Of a stretch of 64,000 bases of DNA, positions 6,785 to 55,641 are shown in pieces. The translations under genes and the position numbers were made by a program. Numbering within the stretch: position 1 is the first letter of the stretch; the number at the start of each line of letters is the position of its first letter. The notes beneath the pieces were generated by a model that was not told the origin of the DNA, searched no databases, and was given only the letters and a program-made list of their open reading frames with translations. The stretch comes from Bacteroidia bacterium (lineage in GTDB: Bacteria; Bacteroidota; Bacteroidia; AKYH767-A; 2013-40CM-41-45): contig JBBRAY010000014.1 in the NCBI GenBank assembly GCA_038206355.1, positions 6,852-70,851 of the forward strand, in the 5' to 3' direction.

Positions 6785-8299
6785 TTGTCTTCCTTAAAGA
6801 AACTCGCTTCGCAAACAGCAGTGTATGGATTGAGCAGCATTGTCGGCCGCATGCTCAATTATTTGCTCGTGCCGCTTTATACCCGCGTTTTCGTTACAGG
6901 TGAATACGGCGTGGTAACGGAGCTTTATGCATACGTTTCTTTCTTCAATATCATTTTTACTTATGGACTGGAGACGGCATTTTTCCGTTATGCAGAAAAA
7001 GAAAAAGGCAATCCGAAAGTATATTCCACTTCTCTCATCAGCATCATTGCCTCATCCATTTCTCTTGCGCTGGTGATCATTTTATTTTCTTCTCCCATCG
7101 CTTCATGGATGAATCACAGTGAAGGGTCTGAGAAAATGTTACCGCAGTACATTAGTTGTTTTGCCCTCGTGCTGGCCTTTGATGCCATCAGCGCCATTCC
7201 GTTTGCAAGACTCCGGCAGGAAGCAAGGGCGTGGCGTTTTGCATCCATCAAGATGGTGTGGATACTTGTGAATGTCGGACTGAATATTTTCTTCCTCGTC
7301 ATATGCCCTTCTGTTAAAGACGGCATGTTCCATGATTTCATCAGCAAAGTTTATGACCCCTCTATTGGAATAGGATATGTTTTTATCAGCAACCTCGCAG
7401 CAAGTGGTATCGTTCTGATTTTTCTTTCTCCTGAAATTTTCAAAATAAATTATTCCTTCGATAAAAAACTCTGGACAACGATGATCATCTATTCGCTTCC
7501 GTTGATGGTTGCAGGTTTTGCCGGGATGATCAATGAAACGTTTGACCGCATCATGTTGCCCCGCCTGATTGCAGATAAGTCAACAGCACTTTCACAACTT
7601 GGTATTTACGGTGCGTGTTACAAGCTGTCTATATTAATGTCACTCTTTGTGCAAACCTTTCGCTATGCAGCAGAACCGTTTTTCTTTTCGCAGGCGTCGA
7701 GCGACAATGCAAAGCGAACCTATGCGCGCGTCATGCATTACTTCGTACTCATGTGTGCATTTATTTTTCTGGCCATCATGATGTACATGGATCTTGTACA
7801 AAAATTAATCGGCGCAGAATACCGCGAAGGAATAGCCATCGTTCCCATCTTACTCATGGCCAATCTTTGTCTCGGCGTGTTTTATAATTTATCAATATGG
7901 TATAAGCTAACCCATCAGACAAAATGGGGAGCATGGCTTTCCATTATCGGTGCGGCGATCACACTCATACTTAATTTTTCACTGATCCCTGCGATGGGTT
8001 ACATGGGCGCTGCATGGGCAACACTGATATGTTATGCAGCGATGATGATTATCTCGTATCTCGTCGGACAAAAATATTACCGGGTGAATTATAATATCCC
8101 GTCATTCATTTATTTTATAGGAACAGCATTGGCATTGTATTTTGTCAGCGAACAGATCAGGAATCATTTTATGTTTGATAAAAACCCGATGATGCTCATC
8201 AACACCGGACTTCTGCTCGTTTATCTTCTCTCTGCAGGGATTTATGAGAGGCGCAAAAATCCCTACATTCGCATCCCTGAAAAAAAGGAAGCTCCCTGA
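6785..8299 (+). CDS. polytopic membrane protein, MOP/Wzx-type polysaccharide biosynthesis (flippase-like) family
   Basis: ~500 aa with at least 12 hydrophobic segments. Length and architecture fit oligosaccharide flippase / polysaccharide biosynthesis proteins. The ORF opens on TTG; the true start is uncertain. Confidence 0.5.
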   Translation: MSSLKKLASQTAVYGLSSIVGRMLNYLLVPLYTRVFVTGEYGVVTELYAYVSFFNIIFTYGLETAFFRYAEKEKGNPKVYSTSLISIIASSISLALVIILFSSPIASWMNHSEGSEKMLPQYISCFALVLAFDAISAIPFARLRQEARAWRFASIKMVWILVNVGLNIFFLVICPSVKDGMFHDFISKVYDPSIGIGYVFISNLAASGIVLIFLSPEIFKINYSFDKKLWTTMIIYSLPLMVAGFAGMINETFDRIMLPRLIADKSTALSQLGIYGACYKLSILMSLFVQTFRYAAEPFFFSQASSDNAKRTYARVMHYFVLMCAFIFLAIMMYMDLVQKLIGAEYREGIAIVPILLMANLCLGVFYNLSIWYKLTHQTKWGAWLSIIGAAITLILNFSLIPAMGYMGAAWATLICYAAMMIISYLVGQKYYRVNYNIPSFIYFIGTALALYFVSEQIRNHFMFDKNPMMLINTGLLLVYLLSAGIYERRKNPYIRIPEKKEAP

Positions 8300-8771: not shown

Positions 8772-8774
8772 GCA

Positions 8775-8792
8775 TCCCGATAGCTATCGGGA
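8775..8792. repeat. 18-bp perfect palindrome TCCCGATAGCTATCGGGA
   Basis: Read directly, 4 nt after the dut stop codon. The identical 18-mer also occurs at 50021..50038 and 51172..51189. Confidence 0.6.
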
Positions 8793-45266: not shown

Positions 45267-46940
45267 TTAATCTTTCGCGATCTCAATACTCACTTTTCTG
45301 CCTTTTACCTTGTTGCCGTTTACTTTTTCAAGCACTTGGTTTAGGTCTTTCTCCATTACTTCCACAAATGAAAATTTGTCGTAGAGGTCAATGATACCGA
45401 TATCTTCGCCATGAATGCCGGTGAGTGATGCGAATGCGCCCGCAATATCTCCCTTACTAACCCTGTCCTGCCGGCCAACGCTTACAAATAACCTCACCAT
45501 ATTTCCCTTTCTCGGAAAACGTTCCCTTGGTTCGCTGCGCTCAGTGCGTTCTCTTCTGTTGCCACGTTCTCCTCTTTCGCCCCGATCGCCTCTTTCTCTT
45601 CTGTCACCGCGATCTTCAGACCTTCCTCCTGATGAAGACGTGCTTTCAACCGGTGCCAGATACATTTTTAATAGCCCTGCTGCCAGTTGATGTAACGTAA
45701 TCCCTTCAGCCATGAAATCGTGAATCATCTTGTCGTAAGTTGGCTGATCAGGTGTGGAGGTAATTTCCTTGATCTTCTCTGCCAGTTTAAGTTTGCTGAG
45801 CTCAAGCAGTTCTTTTCTCGATGGAGCATTATGTCTTTCAATCCGCACTTTTGCATAGCGTTCTATTTCGCGGAGACGCCCCGATTCATTTCTTCCTGTT
45901 ACAAACGTAAATGCCTTACCTGATTTCCCTGCTCGTCCTGTTCTTCCGATGCGGTGAACATAATATTCCGGATCAAGCGGAAGGTCGTAATTAAAAACAG
46001 CATCAACATTATCAACGTCAATGCCGCGTGCAGCTACGTCTGTAGCCACCATGATGTTGATACGGCCGTGTTTGAATTTTGAAAGCACATTATTTCTCTG
46101 ACTCTGATTCAAGTCACCATGAATGGCATCTGCTTTATAACCCATTTCAATCATCTGCTGAACCACTTCATCAACTTTACGTTTTGTATTGCAGAAGACG
46201 AGCATCAGTTTCAAATTGTGCAGGTCGATTAACCGGGCCATCACTTCGGTGCGTTGTCCGCTGGAGAGCTCAAAATATATCTGTTCAATGGCTGCAACTG
46301 TAAGTTCATTCTTTGTTACCTTAACCAGTTTCGGATTTTTCTGAAACTTCCGGGTGATGTCAAGGATGGGTTTCGGCATTGTGGCAGAAAACAATACCGT
46401 TTGTTTTTCTCCCTTGATATTTGAGAGAATCATTTCAATGTCTTCACGAAATCCCATGTTCAGCATTTCATCAGCTTCGTCGAGTACGACACACTTTACA
46501 TGTTCAAAAGAAATCGTTCTGCGTTCAAGATGGTCAATGATGCGGCCGGGCGTTCCAACGATAACGTGGGTTGCACGTTTCAATGCGCTGATTTGTTTCT
46601 GAATTTGCTCTCCTCCATAAACAGGAAGAATAACAATTCCCTTTTTATACTTCGCCAGTTTTTTCAGTTCGTTTGCAACCTGTTGCGCCAGTTCGCGCGT
46701 AGGACACATCACAAGTGCGGCTGTATTTTTATTTTTTACGTCAATCTGCTCTAGCAATGGAATACCGAAGGCAGCAGTTTTACCTGTTCCGGTTTGTGCC
46801 TGGCCGATAACGTCAAGTCCCTGTAAGAGGAATGGAATAGCTTCTGATTGAATGGGGGACGCTTCAACGAATCCCATTTCAGTAATAGCCTGCTGCATCT
46901 CTGCGGAGAGAGACAGCTCATTAAATTTTAATGGTGTCAT
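45267..46940 (-). CDS. DEAD-box ATP-dependent RNA helicase (DeaD/CsdA-like) with C-terminal RGD/RGE-rich basic tail and DbpA-type RNA-binding domain
   Basis: Q-motif, AQTGTGKT, PTRELA, DEAD, SAT and HRIGRTGRAG motifs. Arg/Glu/Gly/Asp repeat tail. Start set to ATG 46940. Confidence 0.85.
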   Translation of the reverse strand: MTPLKFNELSLSAEMQQAITEMGFVEASPIQSEAIPFLLQGLDVIGQAQTGTGKTAAFGIPLLEQIDVKNKNTAALVMCPTRELAQQVANELKKLAKYKKGIVILPVYGGEQIQKQISALKRATHVIVGTPGRIIDHLERRTISFEHVKCVVLDEADEMLNMGFREDIEMILSNIKGEKQTVLFSATMPKPILDITRKFQKNPKLVKVTKNELTVAAIEQIYFELSSGQRTEVMARLIDLHNLKLMLVFCNTKRKVDEVVQQMIEMGYKADAIHGDLNQSQRNNVLSKFKHGRINIMVATDVAARGIDVDNVDAVFNYDLPLDPEYYVHRIGRTGRAGKSGKAFTFVTGRNESGRLREIERYAKVRIERHNAPSRKELLELSKLKLAEKIKEITSTPDQPTYDKMIHDFMAEGITLHQLAAGLLKMYLAPVESTSSSGGRSEDRGDRRERGDRGERGERGNRRERTERSEPRERFPRKGNMVRLFVSVGRQDRVSKGDIAGAFASLTGIHGEDIGIIDLYDKFSFVEVMEKDLNQVLEKVNGNKVKGRKVSIEIAKD

Positions 46941-47063
46941 GATGGAAATTTTATCCGGTGCAGGAGATAGTGCGGAAACTGAGCTAAAAACGGGCAACCG
47001 GCATTGAATGAGGGGCGAAGATAGACAAATTGGGGAGAAGGTCTAATTTATACCCACTTAGCC

Positions 47064-47693
47064 CTAAGGCTTTGAGATTATTTCCTGAACCGCATCATTA
47101 ATTTTCTTTTTCCAGGTTATCCATGTTAAGCCATTCATCATTATGGGTTCCGGCTGGTTTTCTATATCGGCGGTAGAAGAAAGATATTTGAGGATGTTAA
47201 GGGAGTCACTTCCTATATGTCTCTCTGAATAAAATGAAATCATTTGTTCAAGATTAAAATGGTCAAGTATCGAAGCGATATCCATATAATCTTTTTTCTC
47301 TCCCCGTTGAAGAATTGCAAAAAGGATCATCGCAATTATTTCTTCTCTACGTACCATGGCTATTCCATCTACCATTACGGAAGGATGAATAAACGGAATA
47401 TTCCATGTGAGAAAATCCACCTTTGTATTATTTATTTTCATAAACACACCATGCGTGCCGGTATTTACATCGGAAACGTTTGTGAATTGTTTGCCAATCT
47501 CTGCGATCAAATCTCCTGTATTAAAATTCTTTTCCGAAACAAAATCTGCATCCACTGAAATACGATGCCCGACCTGAAGTGCCAGCGCTGTGCCTCCGCA
47601 AAGACGGAATTGAGAAAAATATTTATTGCCGGAAATCTTTTTGATAATTTCCAGAAGTTCAGGAGAAACACATTGGTAGTTCAAATCACTCAT
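47064..47693 (-). CDS. nucleotidyltransferase-fold protein, AbiEii/AbiGii (DUF1814)-like putative toxin
   Basis: CGGTALALQVGHRISVDADF matches the pol-beta NTase G[GS]...hxhSxDhD motif as arranged in AbiEii-family toxins. 209 aa. Overlaps the upstream ORF by 4 nt. Confidence 0.45.
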   Translation of the reverse strand: MSDLNYQCVSPELLEIIKKISGNKYFSQFRLCGGTALALQVGHRISVDADFVSEKNFNTGDLIAEIGKQFTNVSDVNTGTHGVFMKINNTKVDFLTWNIPFIHPSVMVDGIAMVRREEIIAMILFAILQRGEKKDYMDIASILDHFNLEQMISFYSERHIGSDSLNILKYLSSTADIENQPEPIMMNGLTWITWKKKINDAVQEIISKP

Positions 47694-47923
47694 TCGATGT
47701 AACCAAGGGATTTGGCAAAGTCCAGGGTAATTATATCGAGCCCCCGCTGTGAAGTAAGGGAATGGGTAATCTGACCGGCGGAAAAATTTTTCAAAATAAT
47801 GCGCAAGTCATTGAGTAATCCGTATTGAAATACACGTGCGATGATAAAATCCGCCTGTTTGTTTTCGTCGAGTTCATCAAAATTAACATCCCAGAATGCA
47901 GTTTGACTTAGTTGAAGTTGCAT
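47690..47923 (-). CDS. small protein translationally coupled to the AbiEii-like NTase (putative cognate antitoxin/partner)
   Basis: ATGA-type 4-nt overlap with 47064..47693. About 77 aa from ATG 47923 (the track ORF extends to 47998). No recognised domain. Confidence 0.35.
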   Translation of the reverse strand: MQLQLSQTAFWDVNFDELDENKQADFIIARVFQYGLLNDLRIILKNFSAGQITHSLTSQRGLDIITLDFAKSLGYIE

Positions 47924-47954: not shown

Positions 47955-49721
47955 TTATTGCAACATGAGTTTCTTCGTCGTTTGCTTTTCGGAATCACTC
48001 ACCTTTACGAAATAAATTCCTGAAGGGAAATGTTCACAGTTCACGGTTAACGATTCACTGCCCATAAATAAGGCTGAATAGATTTTTTCGCCGACATGGT
48101 TATAAATTTGAACTGTAATCTTTTCGTTAGTAGAACAGGATCCGCAACTGAAAACAAATTCCCCGCTGGCAGGATTCGGGTAAAGCATAAAACCATCGTT
48201 AAAAAAAGATTGGTGTAAACCTGTGCATATCTGAAATACAATCTGAATGGTATCAACTGCGATACAACCCATTGTATCGACAACTTGAACCCAGTATATC
48301 ATTGTATCAGGAACATTTTTGGAAATCTGAATCGATTGGTAAAAACTGCTATCCTGCCATAAATAACTTGAATATCCATATCCTGCATTCAAATAGTGAA
48401 TCTCAGCAGTGCAGAAGATGGTGTCATTTCCTAGAGATACAGATACCGCAGATGAAGAATAAACATGAAAATCGGGACTAAGTGATGTGAAACCACCCGG
48501 ATAAGTCACAGTCACAGTATATGTTCCGGGAAAATTTACAATGATGCTTGCTGTTGTCGCTCCGGTATTCCATAAATACTGGTATCCGGCGCCGCAGGGG
48601 ATGGCATTAAGAGTCACAGAGCCGTTACCGCATGTAAATTCCGGCCCTTCTATATCGGCATAGTAGAAACTGCAGCCGGTAGTAGTGATTGATCCGCCTT
48701 GAGTAGATGAGAAGGAATAAGTAGAAAGAAGGATACCGTTTACATAATTGTAATCCGTATAACCGCCGCTCAATGCCCAGTAATGTTCATCCTCATGCAG
48801 GATGTTGCCGAGAGAATCATAAACATAGTTAAAGGTACCGGTAGTACTAATAATACGGATCGCATTCCCCCATTGATCATAATAAGTGGAGTCGTCAGTA
48901 TATGGATCATAGTTCCATTGTGTGCCATCCCATATATAATGAGCCACAACAGAAGTGTTGTTCAATGAGTCGTAGAGATAAAGATTATAAAATTGTGATG
49001 TGAGTGTTCCCGAATTGTAATTAAACACGATAGTCGAATCAAGAATCGTGCTGTTGTACGAATTGTAGTGATCAACATTGAGATACCACGTTTGTTGACC
49101 TTGATTCCATAGCGTCATGGAATCATGAACCACAAGATTATCCGAATTGTAGAACCTGAAGTTTTTCGAATTATCGTACCATCCGAGAGAATCTCCTCTT
49201 TCGTTTACGATCAGCGAATCATTCCCGGCTGCGTCTGGATAATATAAATTCCGTCTGTAGTTCTGCCAGTTATTAATGTGCCATGTATAATCATCTGATT
49301 CGATCAGATGAAACTGGGTATCGTAGGTGTAAGTCCGGTAGGATGCATATGAAGAATTAATTTCGGCAAAGAAAGTTTCGACCTGATTATTGATATTGTA
49401 AGTATAAGTATAGCGGCTGTTCAGATACCATCCGTTAAGCGAGGTTCCGGTTTCATTTGTGCGTAATACAAGATTTCCGGATGCATCGTAGGACCACTTA
49501 TATCTGTAAGATGTCACCCAGTTTGTGCCATTAAATTTCAGAATCGTATAGGATAGCTGATGATCCAGCGAATCGAAGACCATGATTCTTTTGGTAAGGG
49601 TGGTTTCGAACATGTTATCTGTAGAACAGATTTCCACAACCAGTGAATCTCCGCAGGCGGAAAAACCTTTGACGCTAAACAAACTGAAAATAACAAAAGC
49701 GAAATAAAATCTTAAACTCAT
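47955..49721 (-). CDS. secreted hypothetical protein with T9SS CTD
   Basis: Signal peptide. C-terminal MLYPNPASGEF...GIYFVKVSDSEKQTTKKLMLQ tail related to the CTDs at 49916..50323 and 51071..52672. Confidence 0.6.
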   Translation of the reverse strand: MSLRFYFAFVIFSLFSVKGFSACGDSLVVEICSTDNMFETTLTKRIMVFDSLDHQLSYTILKFNGTNWVTSYRYKWSYDASGNLVLRTNETGTSLNGWYLNSRYTYTYNINNQVETFFAEINSSYASYRTYTYDTQFHLIESDDYTWHINNWQNYRRNLYYPDAAGNDSLIVNERGDSLGWYDNSKNFRFYNSDNLVVHDSMTLWNQGQQTWYLNVDHYNSYNSTILDSTIVFNYNSGTLTSQFYNLYLYDSLNNTSVVAHYIWDGTQWNYDPYTDDSTYYDQWGNAIRIISTTGTFNYVYDSLGNILHEDEHYWALSGGYTDYNYVNGILLSTYSFSSTQGGSITTTGCSFYYADIEGPEFTCGNGSVTLNAIPCGAGYQYLWNTGATTASIIVNFPGTYTVTVTYPGGFTSLSPDFHVYSSSAVSVSLGNDTIFCTAEIHYLNAGYGYSSYLWQDSSFYQSIQISKNVPDTMIYWVQVVDTMGCIAVDTIQIVFQICTGLHQSFFNDGFMLYPNPASGEFVFSCGSCSTNEKITVQIYNHVGEKIYSALFMGSESLTVNCEHFPSGIYFVKVSDSEKQTTKKLMLQ

Positions 49722-49915: not shown

Positions 49916-50323
49916 TTATTTTGTGATCAACAGTTTCTGTGTGAGCTGTTTTTCCGAATCACTCAATCTTACAAAGTAAATTCCTTTTGGGAAAAGTTCA
50001 CTCCCGATGGTCCCGATAGCTATCGGGATCGGGATGACAGTTGACGGTTCACGGTAAGCAGCCGAGTAGATATTTTCTCCAAGTAGGTTGAAGATTTCCA
50101 AAAGGCTGTTAGCTCCGAACGCTGAACTTTTAACTTCGAACTGAAAAGTGGCGGGGTTGGGAGAGATAACGATTTCGCAAGGAGGAATTTTAATTTTCAA
50201 TTGAGAAATTGAAACCGTTGAATCACTACAAAATCCAAAAGCAGGGAAAAAATTAGTTATACCAAATACTATAGTGTCAGGGATTGTACTATGAATGGTT
50301 GAATTGAAAGAAACCGAGAACAT
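49916..50323 (-). pseudogene. truncated T9SS CTD-only gene fragment (duplicate of the 3' end of 51071..52672)
   Basis: The 135-aa ORF begins exactly where the homologous CTD region begins. It aligns to the last ~137 aa of the 51071..52672 product, with high nucleotide similarity over ~400 bp. No signal peptide or N-terminal domains. Confidence 0.6.
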
Positions 50324-50325
50324 TT
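49925..50325. repeat. direct repeat copy A (~400 bp) of T9SS CTD-coding sequence
   Basis: By-eye alignment with 51080..51478 shows long identical runs (e.g. ctcccgatggtcccgatagctatcgggatcggga, gcggggttgggagagat, acaaaatccaaaagcagggaaaaaattagttataccaaatactatagtgtcagggattgtactatgaa). Confidence 0.7.
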
Positions 50326-50784
50326 TTACTTTTCTCCTGCTTCCATTAAGGCAAGCGTTTCAATTTCATTGCTGATGCGAAAATCGGTTTTGCGAATCTT
50401 TTCGAGATAGGGCTTTATGGAAGGAATTAAACCGCGAAGCTTAGCTTTGATTATTACTCCAATGGTACCTGTAATTTCCAATCCGAGATGCTCAGCAATT
50501 TTTCTTGCTTTGAAATCATCAAGAATAATTGTGCTGCCCGGAATTTCAAGAGCGAGCGAAATGGCACTTGCTTCGCCTTTGTCAATTTGCAGTTCAAGAA
50601 TTTGTTGCGGCGTTTTATCAGCTGCGGATTTTAATTCAACCCAATCCGGAAGTGCTTGCCCGAACTCAGTCGCAACCTCATGGGTGGTTAGAATTTTCCC
50701 GTATGTTTTTTGTAATAGGTCAAGCTCACCAATGTTAGTTAGAATGATAAAACAGCTTGTATCCGAAACAATGGTCTTATGCAT
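50326..50784 (-). CDS. DUF3368-family PIN-like putative toxin (predicted nucleic-acid-binding protein)
   Basis: N-terminus IVSDTSCFIILTNIGELDLLQKTYGKI matches the DUF3368 consensus (VSDTSPLIxLxxIGxLDLL). 152 aa. 8-nt overlap with the upstream UPF0175 gene. Confidence 0.6.
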   Translation of the reverse strand: MHKTIVSDTSCFIILTNIGELDLLQKTYGKILTTHEVATEFGQALPDWVELKSAADKTPQQILELQIDKGEASAISLALEIPGSTIILDDFKARKIAEHLGLEITGTIGVIIKAKLRGLIPSIKPYLEKIRKTDFRISNEIETLALMEAGEK

Positions 50785-51004
50785 TATTTACATCTCTTGA
50801 AAGATCGGAAGCAGGATAATTGAAAACAGATACATTGTACTTTCCTAACAGTTCTGTAAAAGTTCGCTTCGTTAAGCCAACTAGTTCGGCTGCCTGCCCG
50901 AGAGATAATTTTCCCTGCTCATACAGACGCGTAGCTACAAGCATGGCAACATCCTTGGCATCAAGGTCAAGCGAATCAGGAATATTGAAAGTCAGAGTTC
51001 TCAT
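50777..51004 (-). CDS. UPF0175-family antitoxin
   Basis: 75 aa. KLSLGQAAELVGLTKRTFTELLGKYNV matches the UPF0175 HTH-like core. This family is the canonical partner of DUF3368 toxins. Confidence 0.6.
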   Translation of the reverse strand: MRTLTFNIPDSLDLDAKDVAMLVATRLYEQGKLSLGQAAELVGLTKRTFTELLGKYNVSVFNYPASDLSRDVNNA

Positions 51005-51070
51005 AGTTCAAAAGTAAGAAAAATCTTAGAGCAGATGAAATTGGAAGCGGTATTGTTACCCATTCAGAGG

Positions 51071-52672
51071 TTAGGGGGCTTCCACAACCAGTTTTTGTAT
51101 CATTTGCTTTTCTCCATCGCTCACACTCACAAAATAAATTCCTCTGGGGAATGGTCGGCTCCCGATGGTCCCGATAGCTATCGGGATCGGGACAACGGTC
51201 ATCGGTCTACAGAAAACAGCCGAATAGATTTTTTCTCCGAGGAGATTGAAGATTTCTAAATGGCTGTTAACTCCGAACGCTGAACTATTGACTTCGAACT
51301 GAAAAGAGGCGGGGTTGGGAGAGATGACGATTTCGCAAGGAGGAATTTTAATTTCCGATTGAGAAATGGATACCGTTGAATCACTACAAAATCCAAAAGC
51401 AGGGAAAAAATTAGTTATACCAAATACTATAGTGTCAGGGATTGTACTATGAACGGTTGAATTGAAAGAAACAGAAGAACTATACATCTGATCATCAAAG
51501 AACACAAATAGTGACGTGTCAATAGCTTCACAAATTCCGGACAGAGAGGAATCCGTTTTTATAACATGAAAACCAGCGGATATGGTTGTCGTGCTGTCGT
51601 AGGGTGATGCGGTTGTAAACAAAAATGCCCCATTCTGTAACACACATTCCTTCGTGTTAAGAAATTCAAAAAAATCAGGCGACCCTATTAGTGTTGTTTT
51701 AATTGGATTGAAGTTGCTATCGAGATGCATGACGAAAGCAGGATACCCATCGCTACAATCAGTTAAGCTCCCCCAGTTGCCTCCGTATGCCATCCATGTT
51801 TTATCTTCTAATTCCTTCATATCCCAAAAGTTGGCGGAACATCCAAAAGCGGGATCGAATGAATATGTTTTCATCCATTCAATGTGATAAGCGGAAGTGA
51901 GTTTTGCAATGAAAGCCCCATTATAAATTGCTCCCGTTATCCCGATTGCGTACAAACCGGAATCAGAAGAATATACGATCTTTTCAATATTAACATCAGT
52001 AAACATTGCAACTGTTGAGTTAGAATATTCTCCTGAAGCATTTAAAAAATTTGAATCAACATGACCTAAATTGAAACCATAGTATTGGTAAGACAAGTAA
52101 CTTCCATCATATAACTTCAAAATTTTCCCATCAATATATTCCGTTAAGGTTTCTCGAAGATTGTTCCCAAGTTCATCAAAACGAATTAACTTCCATCGGC
52201 TGGGAGGACGACTATCTATTGAAATTGTGTATCCTAAAGAATCAGGAATACAATTTATAGGGTAATTGTTTTGAGAAATTGAATCTCCAATTGTTTTAGT
52301 ATAACAAATGGCTCCGGAAGTGTCAATGCAAATTATTACAGTTTGTCCCCAGGGAGAAAAAACACCTTCATCTCTTGAGCCAACCATAATTAATTTCTGA
52401 CTAGGAAGCATGATCATATCCTTCAATAGGTGGCGTCTGTTAGGTGACCCAATTGAATAATCCCATATTACATTCCCTATTGAATCAAGTTTGACGATGA
52501 AAAAGCGGAGGGCGACATCCACGCCTCCTATATAAATGCTTCCTGCTGCATCGGTTTGCAAAAGCTGACTCCAATAACAAGGTTGTAGATATTGCTTGTG
52601 AAAAACGGATTGCCCAAAAGTGTTATTAAAAAAAACAAAAAGGAATCCATAGAAAAATAGTTGCCTTTTCAT
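51071..52672 (-). CDS. secreted hypothetical protein with T9SS CTD
   Basis: Signal peptide from ATG 52672 (MKRQLFFYGFLFVFF). The C-terminal 137 aa form a T9SS CTD that is duplicated at 49916..50323. Confidence 0.6.
   Translation of the reverse strand: MKRQLFFYGFLFVFFNNTFGQSVFHKQYLQPCYWSQLLQTDAAGSIYIGGVDVALRFFIVKLDSIGNVIWDYSIGSPNRRHLLKDMIMLPSQKLIMVGSRDEGVFSPWGQTVIICIDTSGAICYTKTIGDSISQNNYPINCIPDSLGYTISIDSRPPSRWKLIRFDELGNNLRETLTEYIDGKILKLYDGSYLSYQYYGFNLGHVDSNFLNASGEYSNSTVAMFTDVNIEKIVYSSDSGLYAIGITGAIYNGAFIAKLTSAYHIEWMKTYSFDPAFGCSANFWDMKELEDKTWMAYGGNWGSLTDCSDGYPAFVMHLDSNFNPIKTTLIGSPDFFEFLNTKECVLQNGAFLFTTASPYDSTTTISAGFHVIKTDSSLSGICEAIDTSLFVFFDDQMYSSSVSFNSTVHSTIPDTIVFGITNFFPAFGFCSDSTVSISQSEIKIPPCEIVISPNPASFQFEVNSSAFGVNSHLEIFNLLGEKIYSAVFCRPMTVVPIPIAIGTIGSRPFPRGIYFVSVSDGEKQMIQKLVVEAP
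51080..51478. repeat. direct repeat copy B (~400 bp) of T9SS CTD-coding sequence
   Basis: See copy A. The two copies bracket the UPF0175/DUF3368 cassette. Confidence 0.7.
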
Positions 52673-52758
52673 GTCGCTAACTTTTAAGTAAATCAAAATT
52701 TATTAAACGGTTTTCATTGCCAACCGCCTACTACCTCCAGCCTCCTGCCGCTTTCCTC

Positions 52759-55641
52759 CTAATGCGCTTCCAGCCAGTTCTTCCCCGTTCCAACACCAAC
52801 TTCAACCGGTACTTTTAACGGCAAAGCCGTTTTCATTTTATCGAGGACGAGTTCTTTTACTTCTTCAAGTTCAGGTTTAATAACATCAAACACCAGTTCA
52901 TCATGGACTTGCAACAACATTTTTGATTGCAGCTTTTTCTTTTTCAATTCATGCTGTATGTTGATCATTGCAACCTTTATCATATCGGCGGCGCTACCTT
53001 GAATTGGGGCATTAATTGCATTGCGCTCTGCAAATCCACGCACCGTTTGGTTGGCGCTGTTGATGTCACGGAGGTATCGCCTACGGCCCAAAACGGTTTC
53101 TACATATCCGTTGCTACGCGCTTTCTCAATGCTGTCCGTCATGTATTCCTGAACCTGCGGATACTGCATAAAATAATTTTCGATGATGCCTTTCGCTTCT
53201 GTGCGGGAAATATTTAGCCGATCGGCAAGACCAAATGCAGAGATGCCATAGATAATTCCGAAGTTCACCATCTTGGCATTGCGCCTCATATCAGAGGATA
53301 CATCTTTCAAAGCAACACCATAAACTTTCGATGCCGTAGTGGCGTGAATGTCTTCTCCGCTTTTAAATGCATCAATCATTGCTTTGTCGCCACTGAGTTC
53401 TGCAATGATGCGGAGTTCGATCTGTGAATAGTCGGCGCTTAATAAAATAAATTTACTGTTGCGTGGAATAAATGCTTTGCGGATTTCTCTTCCCCGTTCA
53501 GTTCGTATTGGAATATTTTGAAGGTTTGGATTATCAGAACTTAATCTTCCGGTTACTGCCACTACCTGGTTGTAACTGGTATGAATTCTTCCGGTGTTCG
53601 GATTCACCATCAGCGGCAACGTATCCACATAGGTGCTCTTTAATTTTACAAGCTCACGGTAATCGAGAATTTTTTTAATGATGGGACTTTTGTTTTCAAT
53701 CTTGCTCAATACATCTTCTGCTGTTGAGTACTGCCCCGTTTTTGTTTTTACCGGCTTCTCAACGATTTTGAGTTTTTCAAAAAGAACCTCACCCACCTGC
53801 TTCGGAGATGACACATTGAATTCCATCCCCGCCAGCTTCTGAATTTCTTTTTCAGTCTTGGCAATGTCTTTCTCGAGCACTTTTGAAAGCTCGTGTAAGG
53901 CATCTACGTCAACATTTATTCCTTCGGCTTCCATATCAGTAAGTACCGATACGAGCGGCATCTCCACTTCATCAAATAATTTTTGTACGCCGGATTTTTT
54001 CAATTGGGGAGCAAAGGTGGAATGCAATTGCAAGGTAACGTCGGCGTCTTCAGCTGCATATTCAGCAATTAATTCCGGAGGAGCATCGCGCATGCTGCCC
54101 TGTTCTTTGCCCCGTTCCTTCTTGCCGATCAGCGTTTCAATTTTTACAGGAGAATAATTCAGATATGTTTCTGAAAGTACATCCATGCTGTGCCGCATGT
54201 CGGGCTGAATGAGAAAGTGCGCAATCATCGTGTCGAACATTTCTCCTTTTACTTCTACATCATATTTCCGGAGAACAGACATGTCATACTTTAAATTCTG
54301 TCCGACCTTTTCAATTTTTTCATTTTCAAAAACGGATTTGAATTCGGTGACAATCTTTTTCGTTTCTTTTTGGTCAGCCGGAACGGGAACCCAATATCCT
54401 TCATGCGCTTTGATGGAAAAGCTCATGCCCACCAGTTCTGAAGTTAATGCATTGAGGCCTGTTGTCTCTGTGTCAAAACAAAATGATTTTTGTTTGGAAA
54501 GTAGACCGGTAAGATCTTTTATTTTCTCCTTTGTATCAGCGGTGATGTAGTTGTGCTTGACATCAGCAATAGTATTGTGAGTCCCACCTATATCCTCCCC
54601 TAAAGGGAAGACTTGAACAATCAAATCCTCTTCGATCGAATGAGAAACTTTTACCTCATCATCATTGGTAAAAAATAAACTGCCCTGCGTTCCGGTCAAG
54701 ATTTTTTTAGGAGCTGTGGGGGCTGTTCCACCCTTCCCTTTTGGAAGGGAAGGGGATGGGCTTGTGGAACTTCCGTTCAGTCCTAATTGTTCTCCCAATC
54801 TCCTGAATTCGAGCTCAGCAAACAGCTCAATCAGTGCCTCTTTATTCCATTCCTGTTTTTCCAGATCTTTCAGCTTTATTTTTATAGGAACATTAAGCAT
54901 AATTGTCGCCAGACTTTTCGAAAGCAAAGCGTTTACTTTTCCTTCTTCCACTTTTTCACGCATCTTGCCTGTGATCTTGTCCGTGTTCTTCAGCAGGTTT
55001 TCAATGGAGCCATATTCCTTGATGAATTTAATCGCAGTCTTTTCTCCTACACCGCGAATACCCGGTATATTATCTACTGCATCGCCCATGAGTCCGAGAA
55101 TATCAATCAACTGATCCACCCGCTCAATTTCCCACTTCGCACACACTTCTTTGATGCCCATAATTTCGGGAGGATTTCCGGCGCGTGCGGGTTTGTAAAT
55201 AAAAGTATGTTCATCCACGAGTTGCCCGTAATCTTTATCAGGCGTCATCATGTAAGTATCGAATCCTTCTTTCTCTGCTTTCTTTGCAAGCGTGCCGATA
55301 ATATCATCTGCTTCATAACCATCTAAAAAAAGTACAGGAATATTAAATGCTTCACACACCTTTTGTACATAGGGGATGGCAAGTGCAAGATCTTCGGGAA
55401 TTTCCTGACGGCCGGCTTTGTATTCCGGAAACTCTTCGTGTCGAGAAGTAGGCGCTGCAGTATCGAACACCACTGCAATGTGTGAGGGTTGTTCTTTCTT
55501 CAGCACTTCAAGAAGCGTTGTGGTGAAACCGAAAATAGCTGAAGTATTTTGCCCTTTACTGTTGATGCGGTGATTCTGGCTGAATGCGAAATAAGCGCGG
55601 TAGATGAGCGCCATGGCATCGAGGAGGAATAGTTTTTTCAT
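52759..55641 (-). CDS. polA: DNA polymerase I
   Basis: 960 aa. N-terminal 5'-3' exonuclease (FEN-like, LLDAMALIYRAYFA). 3'-5' exonuclease region. C-terminal polymerase motifs A, B and C (DYSQIELR, RRNAKMVNFGIIYG, VHDELVF). Confidence 0.9.
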   Translation of the reverse strand: MKKLFLLDAMALIYRAYFAFSQNHRINSKGQNTSAIFGFTTTLLEVLKKEQPSHIAVVFDTAAPTSRHEEFPEYKAGRQEIPEDLALAIPYVQKVCEAFNIPVLFLDGYEADDIIGTLAKKAEKEGFDTYMMTPDKDYGQLVDEHTFIYKPARAGNPPEIMGIKEVCAKWEIERVDQLIDILGLMGDAVDNIPGIRGVGEKTAIKFIKEYGSIENLLKNTDKITGKMREKVEEGKVNALLSKSLATIMLNVPIKIKLKDLEKQEWNKEALIELFAELEFRRLGEQLGLNGSSTSPSPSLPKGKGGTAPTAPKKILTGTQGSLFFTNDDEVKVSHSIEEDLIVQVFPLGEDIGGTHNTIADVKHNYITADTKEKIKDLTGLLSKQKSFCFDTETTGLNALTSELVGMSFSIKAHEGYWVPVPADQKETKKIVTEFKSVFENEKIEKVGQNLKYDMSVLRKYDVEVKGEMFDTMIAHFLIQPDMRHSMDVLSETYLNYSPVKIETLIGKKERGKEQGSMRDAPPELIAEYAAEDADVTLQLHSTFAPQLKKSGVQKLFDEVEMPLVSVLTDMEAEGINVDVDALHELSKVLEKDIAKTEKEIQKLAGMEFNVSSPKQVGEVLFEKLKIVEKPVKTKTGQYSTAEDVLSKIENKSPIIKKILDYRELVKLKSTYVDTLPLMVNPNTGRIHTSYNQVVAVTGRLSSDNPNLQNIPIRTERGREIRKAFIPRNSKFILLSADYSQIELRIIAELSGDKAMIDAFKSGEDIHATTASKVYGVALKDVSSDMRRNAKMVNFGIIYGISAFGLADRLNISRTEAKGIIENYFMQYPQVQEYMTDSIEKARSNGYVETVLGRRRYLRDINSANQTVRGFAERNAINAPIQGSAADMIKVAMINIQHELKKKKLQSKMLLQVHDELVFDVIKPELEEVKELVLDKMKTALPLKVPVEVGVGTGKNWLEAH

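Follow-up and report, generated by a model that had tools for sequence, protein, structure and literature searches.

In an uncultured Bacteroidia bacterium, a 64,000-nucleotide stretch (positions 6,852 to 70,851 of contig JBBRAY010000014.1, assembly GCA_038206355.1; hereafter the window) holds a predicted toxin–antitoxin (TA) pair of the UPF0175 and DUF3368 families. The pair is flanked on one side by T9_2, an intact gene for a cargo protein of the type IX secretion system (T9SS), and on the other by a 135-codon open reading frame (ORF) that resembles only the end of T9_2, including the part encoding the C-terminal domain (CTD). This short ORF is probably the 5′-truncated remnant of a once-functional T9_2-like paralogue or allele, severed where the TA cassette inserted into a hypervariable island, and what had been described as a 400-bp direct repeat around the cassette would then most plausibly consist of homologous sequence in a live gene and in a dead copy. 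The TA family is both known and very common, there are known cases of TA modules in variable islands, and gene stubs at insertion points are ordinary; the locus is a real scar of past recombination for which no new mechanism is needed, and not a new kind of system.

The genes at and around the cassette lie on the minus strand, and positions are numbered as in the window. The ORF list and Pfam together give the order polA, T9_2, UPF0175, DUF3368, the 135-codon ORF (hereafter the fragment), T9_1, DUF6922/AbiEii and DEAD-box helicase, with every Pfam match above its curated cut-off. The ORF coordinates, anatomy and family assignments proposed in a first-pass annotation made from the sequence are borne out, Pfam finding UPF0175, DUF3368 and Por_Secre_tail. 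T9_2 (51071–52672) is part of an ORF that reaches 52696, with the likely true start at M9 (52672); the product of 533 aa is 100% identical to NCBI protein P0001. Its N terminus, judged by eye from the sequence, is a signal-peptide-like segment, MKRQLFFYGFLFVFFNNTFGQ, and its CTD matches PF18962 (Por_Secre_tail) at 27.5 bits against a cut-off of 27 and the type A model TIGR04183 at 31 bits against a cut-off of 23. The putative antitoxin gene comes next (UPF0175, COG2886; 50777–51004; 75 aa; PF03683, E = 5.3e-19). It is overlapped by 8 nt by the co-oriented gene for an intact, PIN-like putative toxin (DUF3368, COG2405; 50326–50784; 152 aa; PF11848, E = 4.2e-13, 49.4 bits against a cut-off of 27.3), directly after which the fragment begins (49916–50323).

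The fragment and its homology to T9_2

The fragment consists of 52 aa of pre-CTD sequence followed by a CTD that scores 32.1 bits with Por_Secre_tail and 35.5 bits with TIGR04183, both above the cut-offs. Its first 52 residues, upstream of the Pfam CTD, are specific to T9_2 and have no counterpart in other CTD genes, which indicates a T9_2-like gene, as opposed to a generic CTD, as the source of the fragment. The first-pass annotation had proposed comparing the repeat with other T9SS CTD paralogues, and the repeat stands well above them: the fragment is 82% identical in protein sequence to the end of T9_2, against 39% for the CTD of T9_1 and 27–28% for two other CTDs of the window. The beginning of the fragment, MFSVSFNSTIHSTIPD, has by eye neither a basic nor a hydrophobic leader, and hence no signal peptide. 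The ATG of the fragment arises where the fragment joins the cassette, 2 nt after the toxin TAA and in a different frame, and the first homologous base is at most 5 nt from the toxin stop.

T9_2, T9_1 and the fragment all match the type A T9SS cargo models (PF18962/TIGR04183) above the curated cut-offs. Unlike such cargo, the fragment lacks both signal peptide and passenger domain and so cannot be a T9SS substrate; without a signal peptide its sorting domain cannot function and the stub is not exportable. A search of 5.8 billion proteins turned up no separate protein for the fragment, and its reading frame, in which no stop has yet arisen, is probably a pseudogene remnant. T9_2 itself is a near-orphan, since the same number of clustered proteins yielded only T9_2 and two weak homologues, one a 38% match to the CTD and the other, P0003, a 26% match over the full length. 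P0003 belongs to a three-gene tandem T9SS array adjoining a SnoaL gene in L082.

By blastn the repeat joins 49928–50321 in the fragment (copy A) to 51085–51480, the final ~131 codons of T9_2 (copy B), at 87% identity over 399 columns (E = 1e-126). A codon-guided alignment places 390 nt of the two copies ungapped and in frame, with 52 differences (86.7% identity) and identical runs of 82, 34 and 28 nt. The ~400-bp direct repeats with long identical stretches claimed earlier are therefore present in outline, but the similarity is a mosaic that fades into the CTD background at its end. The 5′ 230 nt (50088–50317 in copy A) are 94.3% identical between the copies and the 3′ 160 nt (49928–50087) 75.6%, with a breakpoint near 50087/51245 (maximum chi-square 28.6, reached in 0 of 2000 permutations, p < 0.0005). 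Identity declines from 94% to 63–69% along the length of the repeat, which exceeds chance and the CTD-paralogue background solely over the 5′ ~300 nt. The last 75 nt of the fragment are 69% identical to T9_2, inside the range of unrelated CTD pairs (52–80%), and 73, 77 and 80% identical to T9_1 and to the T9SS genes of two related genomes, L004 and L005. Homology ends a few codons before the stops and the DNA downstream is unrelated: T9_2 finishes with VEAP-stop and 47 nt, the fragment with LITK-stop and 194 nt, the fragment-type 3′ end reading …ELFPKGIYFVRLSDSEKQLTQKLLITK.

These features bear on a simpler origin, in which the 3′ end of T9_2 was recently duplicated in tandem, either carrying the cassette along or before the cassette was inserted, and one copy then decayed. 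The 94% identity of the first 230 nt, the 82-nt perfect run and the presence of the same in-frame palindrome (described below) at the same codon in both copies fit such a duplication. The last codons and the sequence after the stops, however, are non-homologous, and divergence along the repeat is strongly heterogeneous at the level of significance given above. By the NG86 method dS is 0.15 in the left part and ~1.0 in the right part without the palindrome, and the overall dN/dS of 0.31 is lower than expected had one copy drifted freely; a ratio of about 0.3 indicates that most of the divergence accumulated under purifying selection, between two functional genes. When the differences are polarised with outgroup CTDs, derived residues number 10 in each copy, so that neither is indicated as ancestral, which also speaks against decay of a single copy. 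We therefore regard a recent duplication as unlikely, and the gene-end duplication carrying the cassette that the first-pass annotation offered as one option is disfavoured by the lack of homology past the last codons, by the 76% identity and dS of ~1 of the 3′ 160 nt, by the dN/dS of ~0.3 and by the occurrence of cassette relatives without a CTD. Its other two options, the remnant of a deleted third paralogue and acquisition of the cassette through recombination with a single gene of a paralogue array, are the ones the evidence favours. On the reading of the fragment as a truncated T9_2-like gene, the high-identity 5′ block resembles a tract that underwent gene conversion or recombination at a later time.

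The two copies could in principle still recombine. They align collinearly and in frame, with one identical stretch of 82 nt, which makes excision of the TA pair feasible, and a crossover at any point is predicted to leave an in-frame hybrid gene. An 82-nt run exceeds the usual minimal pairing length for recombination. Post-segregational killing could in turn select against loss of the TA pair by this route.

The UPF0175/DUF3368 cassette

The boundaries of the cassette are set by comparison with its relatives. Homologues of the toxin number 2716 at E ≤ 1e-10; most are Bacteroidota proteins of 151 aa with 70–88% identity to it. The toxin retains every invariant column of an alignment with 14 homologues, including D8, E40, E71, D89 and D90. 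In blastn comparisons, homology between the cassette and five other genomic contexts begins at 51020–51027 and ends at 50307–50332, with 82% identity to L083, 76–77% to L086, L087 and L089, and 70–72% to L170, L173 and L174; UPF0175 is also paired with DUF3368 in L083, L089, L170, L173 and L174. The cassette follows a gene for a 206-aa CTD protein in one of these contexts (elsewhere in the L003 genome), a pseudouridine synthase gene in another and a Leu/Phe-transferase gene in a third; in the other two it adjoins mutL and an SprB-type gene, respectively. No relationship exists among the flanks, and none contains homology to the CTD found here. Constant boundaries across unrelated flanks identify the TA pair as an autonomous unit of ~700 bp (50325–51023), made up of a leader of 19–23 nt and both ORFs. 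Its left edge lies 47 nt from the T9_2 stop, across a spacer (51024–51070) unrelated either to the DNA 3′ of the fragment or to the flanks of the other cassettes, and its right edge abuts codon ~405 of the second T9_2-like sequence.

The unit seems to carry its own promoter. Four nucleotides upstream of the antitoxin ATG lies the putative promoter box TACTTTTG (51009–51016), and all of the cassette homologues have a similar box at the same place; we take it to match the Bacteroidetes −7 promoter box TAnnTTTG, so that it presumably drives the pair. Counts of sigma-70 promoters and terminators were not above those in shuffled sequence, with a model that is not designed for Bacteroidetes promoters, and no terminator was found between the toxin gene and the fragment. 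Inspection by eye of the cassette ends in the different contexts revealed neither terminal repeats nor target duplications. The ORF list and Pfam show no integrase or transposase ORF at 45–57 kb, Rfam gave no matches at E ≤ 0.1 over 45–56 kb, no NCBIfam model matched the TA proteins, and a sequence search of the PDB with the toxin gave no match at E ≤ 0.01.

COG2405/DUF3368 proteins with UPF0175 partners form a predicted PIN-type type II TA pair (Matelska et al. 2017, PMC5499597; Makarova et al. 2009 cited there). The pair described here resembles these systems in its Pfam families, with the antitoxin gene first, the overlap, the co-orientation, the sizes (75 and 152 aa) and the invariant acidic residues. 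It differs in its chromosomal setting alone, abutting a truncated copy of a CTD gene, and not at all in the module itself. As in any PIN/VapBC-type module, a labile antitoxin would most likely neutralise the PIN-like nuclease and repress the operon.

The following course of events can be proposed. A compact ~700-bp TA cassette with its own promoter box would have landed 47 nt downstream of T9_2, among tandem T9_2-like sequences, and on arrival it would have eliminated ~400 codons from the 5′ end of the downstream sequence. In a variant of this scheme, double recombination with a diverged donor allele may have left the end of the resident gene behind. The second T9_2-like sequence would thus be either a tandem paralogue or the resident allele displaced by the foreign DNA, and its promoter, signal peptide and passenger domain would have been lost in the process. 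Later gene conversion or recombination would then have made the repeat a mosaic, and the stub may be co-transcribed with the TA genes while having no role.

Insertion by a single crossover was considered as well. Campbell-type integration and homology-facilitated illegitimate recombination of foreign DNA are both reportedly known, and like their products the locus shows an insert flanked by a duplicated and partly diverged piece of the target, one copy intact and one 5′-truncated. In the Campbell version, a circular DNA carrying the TA pair and a ~400-bp CTD end would have recombined with the resident T9_2, and CTD ends would act as capture sites. The topology fits exactly, with intact gene, repeat, insert and repeat in that order and the second copy truncated right at the edge of the insert; 390 nt of the two copies align collinearly and in frame, and the nearest cassette relative (88% toxin identity), at a different locus in the same metagenome-assembled genome (MAG) as L003, also lies 3′ of a CTD gene. 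Against this, 0 of 5 other cassette contexts have CTD homology, similarity ending at the leader and at the toxin stop, and the CTD gene upstream of the L083 cassette is unrelated in sequence to the CTD here. The 3′ part of the repeat is at background with dS ~1, which would require a highly diverged allele as the incoming homology, and no circular intermediate or donor allele was seen and no integrase or mobile-element gene is adjacent. Full-length repeat copies together with a recombinase gene, the marks of a transposon- or Campbell-type target duplication, were not found. Such an integration accordingly has little to recommend it over the truncation of a T9_2-like gene, and we consider it improbable.

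Adjacency to a CTD gene is in any case poor evidence of capture. With a hidden Markov model built from the local CTDs, 12 CTD-bearing ORFs were counted in the window, so a TA pair adjoining a CTD gene is expected by chance; a specific association of TA modules with CTDs was rejected for this reason and on account of the five other contexts with unrelated neighbours. The broader idea that CTD-coding 3′ ends are recombination anchors, capturing TA cassettes and new passenger domains into cargo arrays, strikes us as quite doubtful. Under it, each event would leave an intact gene with a truncated CTD copy, and the two repeats could subsequently serve to remove the cassette and exchange the CTD end in frame; a palindromic element in the CTD loop might serve as the recombination hotspot. 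If true, CTD-end capture would provide a mechanism for rapid diversification of T9SS cargo, but the present data do not favour it.

It has also to be asked whether the stub has a function, either within the TA operon, as its third gene, whose product could for instance be a CTD-like regulator in the cytoplasm, or within a programmed switch by which T9_2 would exchange its CTD and the TA pair would be lost. The ORF is intact over 135 codons and its ATG lies 2 nt past the toxin stop, which makes re-initiation conceivable; a hybrid gene would be intact wherever in the 390-nt in-frame repeat the copies recombined; and COG2405 toxins are reported in some three-component systems (PMC5499597). None of the other cassette homologues, however, is followed by a CTD-like ORF, a sorting domain without signal peptide has no known role, there is no recombinase nearby and nothing of the arrangement is conserved in relatives. 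A function of either kind is therefore highly improbable, and a remnant of a T9_2-like gene remains the preferred explanation of the fragment.

The interval between polA and the DEAD-box helicase gene

The cassette lies in an interval bordered by two conserved genes. To its left is polA (52759–55641; 82–89% aa identity in the relatives L002–L005), to its right the DEAD-box helicase gene (45267–46997; 85–91% aa identity in L003, L004 and L005). The nearest genomes in a scan of GTDB genomes, the four relatives L002–L005, have polA identities of 82–89%. Both border genes are conserved in relatives (82–91%), whereas L003, L004, L005 and the window differ in what lies between them; at the polA stop codon the DNA ceases to match any of the four relatives, and the UPF0175/DUF3368 pair is absent from this site in all four. 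The arrangement is thus not conserved, and the ancient fixed locus against which the first-pass annotation had wished to guard is not what the relatives show.

In the window, the fragment is followed by the next T9SS cargo gene, T9_1 (47955–49721; 588 aa), with an unrelated passenger domain and a CTD 39% identical to that of the fragment. Directly 3′ of T9_1 is a second TA-like pair (47064–47923), identified from Pfam and from gene calls in the contig L177 (see below) as DUF6922 (47690–47923; 77 aa) and an AbiEii nucleotidyltransferase (47064–47693). Of all that occupies the interval in L003, L004 and L005, DUF6922/AbiEii, next to the DEAD-box helicase gene, is best conserved. L004 has polA, one T9SS gene, DUF6922/AbiEii and DEAD. 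L005 has a decayed CTD stub of ~35 codons, DUF6922, a truncated AbiEii gene, a PIN_3 TA pair (L005:3682–4300), a gene for a 505-aa T9SS protein and SnoaL. L003 has an Eco57I/MmeI-type (type IIG) restriction–modification (R-M) gene (L003:13335–16343) and a membrane protein gene, then DUF6922/AbiEii. The interval is a hypervariable hotspot at which cargo genes and TA or R-M modules turn over, and both 5′-truncated CTD stubs and TA turnover recur within it. Given the 12 CTD ORFs in 64 kb, the second TA pair after T9_1 and the TA and R-M genes in the same interval of relatives, the earlier suggestion that an addiction module in a cargo array is unusual finds no support. The locus is a tidy example of T9SS cargo arrays and addiction or defence modules turning over at one hotspot, with CTD stubs as recurrent scars. 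Type A CTD genes are very dense across 2155–42173 of the window, and several are adjacent to one another at 24–42 kb.

TA modules in hypervariable regions, defence islands and superintegron arrays are said to stabilise neighbouring DNA. The present locus is like these in being a small cassette in an interval that varies among close relatives and contains R-M and Abi-type genes, and in that recombination between the flanking repeats would remove the TA genes. It is unlike the superintegron TAs in having no integron integrase, attC sites or mobile-element genes, and a stabilising effect here would be conjectural.

A repeat of this kind in a MAG raises the question of assembly. An independent Logan assembly (SRR19962010) contains two contigs that are 100% identical to the window. 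The first, L001, corresponds to 51188–50266 and holds the T9_2-specific CTD end, the spacer, the TA genes and the first 58 nt of the fragment; the second, L177, corresponds to 50030–46541 and holds the fragment-specific CTD end, the spacer, T9_1, DUF6922/AbiEii and the start of the DEAD gene. Both begin at the shared 34-nt palindrome, and L001 ends inside the near-identical block, which is the behaviour expected of a true repeat. An artefact would mean that two strain alleles were stitched in tandem in the MAG, or that a deletion variant was mixed with a circular or tandem TA-repeat form. The source of the sequence, the breaks of the short-read unitigs at the repeats and the position of 50031–50265 outside the independent contigs all leave room for this. 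The toxin-to-fragment junction, however, lies outside any repeat and is reproduced at 100% in L001, the joining of the fragment-specific 3′ end to T9_1 is reproduced in L177, and the sole alternative joining leaves the TA segment as a closed circle and not as another linear order. We consider an artefact very improbable indeed.

Several observations weigh against interpreting the fragment as the remnant of a T9_2-like gene cut by the cassette, or at least qualify it. The central ~235 nt of the fragment (50031–50265) are supported by the window assembly alone. The stub has neither a stop nor a frameshift across 135 codons, implying that truncation was recent or that some constraint acts on it, and the perfect palindrome within a region of ~77% identity is not explained by simple decay. 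The TA activity of the pair is a prediction. The pre-insertion state, whether an empty site or a full third paralogue, was not found in the protein search with T9_2, in the JGI metagenomes or in the GTDB scan; an exact 27-mer of the conserved repeat core had no match in JGI metagenome contigs, and a scan of metagenome contigs with the polA C terminus gave nothing closer than 75%. With no pre-insertion genome found, the paralogue-remnant, displaced-allele and Campbell versions are not separable.

A palindromic element in CTD-coding DNA

An unexpected feature of the locus is a palindromic element within the CTD-coding DNA. A nested palindrome of 34 nt is present in frame in the CTD of the fragment (50001–50034) and in that of T9_2 (51159–51192), where it encodes IPIPIAIGTIG. 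The two copies are 100% identical, with flanks that are ~75–80% identical, and the RNA hairpin formed by the 34 nt has a free energy of about −21.9 kcal/mol. The core is a perfect palindrome of 18 nt, TCCCGATAGCTATCGGGA, nested in a palindrome of 33–34 nt and placed at the same codon in both copies. The CTDs of T9_1, L004 and L005 lack this insertion.

The core recurs elsewhere, at 8774–8791 of the window (after dut) and at L082:4250–4267, L002:7744–7761, L005:6717–6734 and L022:7808–7825. Three copies were seen in the 64 kb, and both intergenic sites (including those in relatives) and in-frame sites are represented. In the CTD gene L082_c the core is in frame, encoding LPIAIGT, a few codons away from the position occupied here, so that this is an independent insertion. 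Rickettsia palindromic elements (RPE) and repetitive extragenic palindromic (REP)-type repeats are short palindromic repeats that can lie in frame within genes. The core resembles these elements in occurring both between genes and in frame, at slightly different sites in two genes; unlike the Rickettsia elements it is much shorter and has few copies. From its sequence and distribution it looks like a lineage-specific REP- or RPE-like element. A near-palindrome of another sequence, CGACAGTCGACGGTCGACTGTCG, is present in L082_a and L082_b (L082:1000–1101 and 2560–2656), two further CTD genes in tandem; it encodes SRQSTVDCRQ and occupies the same CTD loop as the palindrome of the fragment and T9_2.

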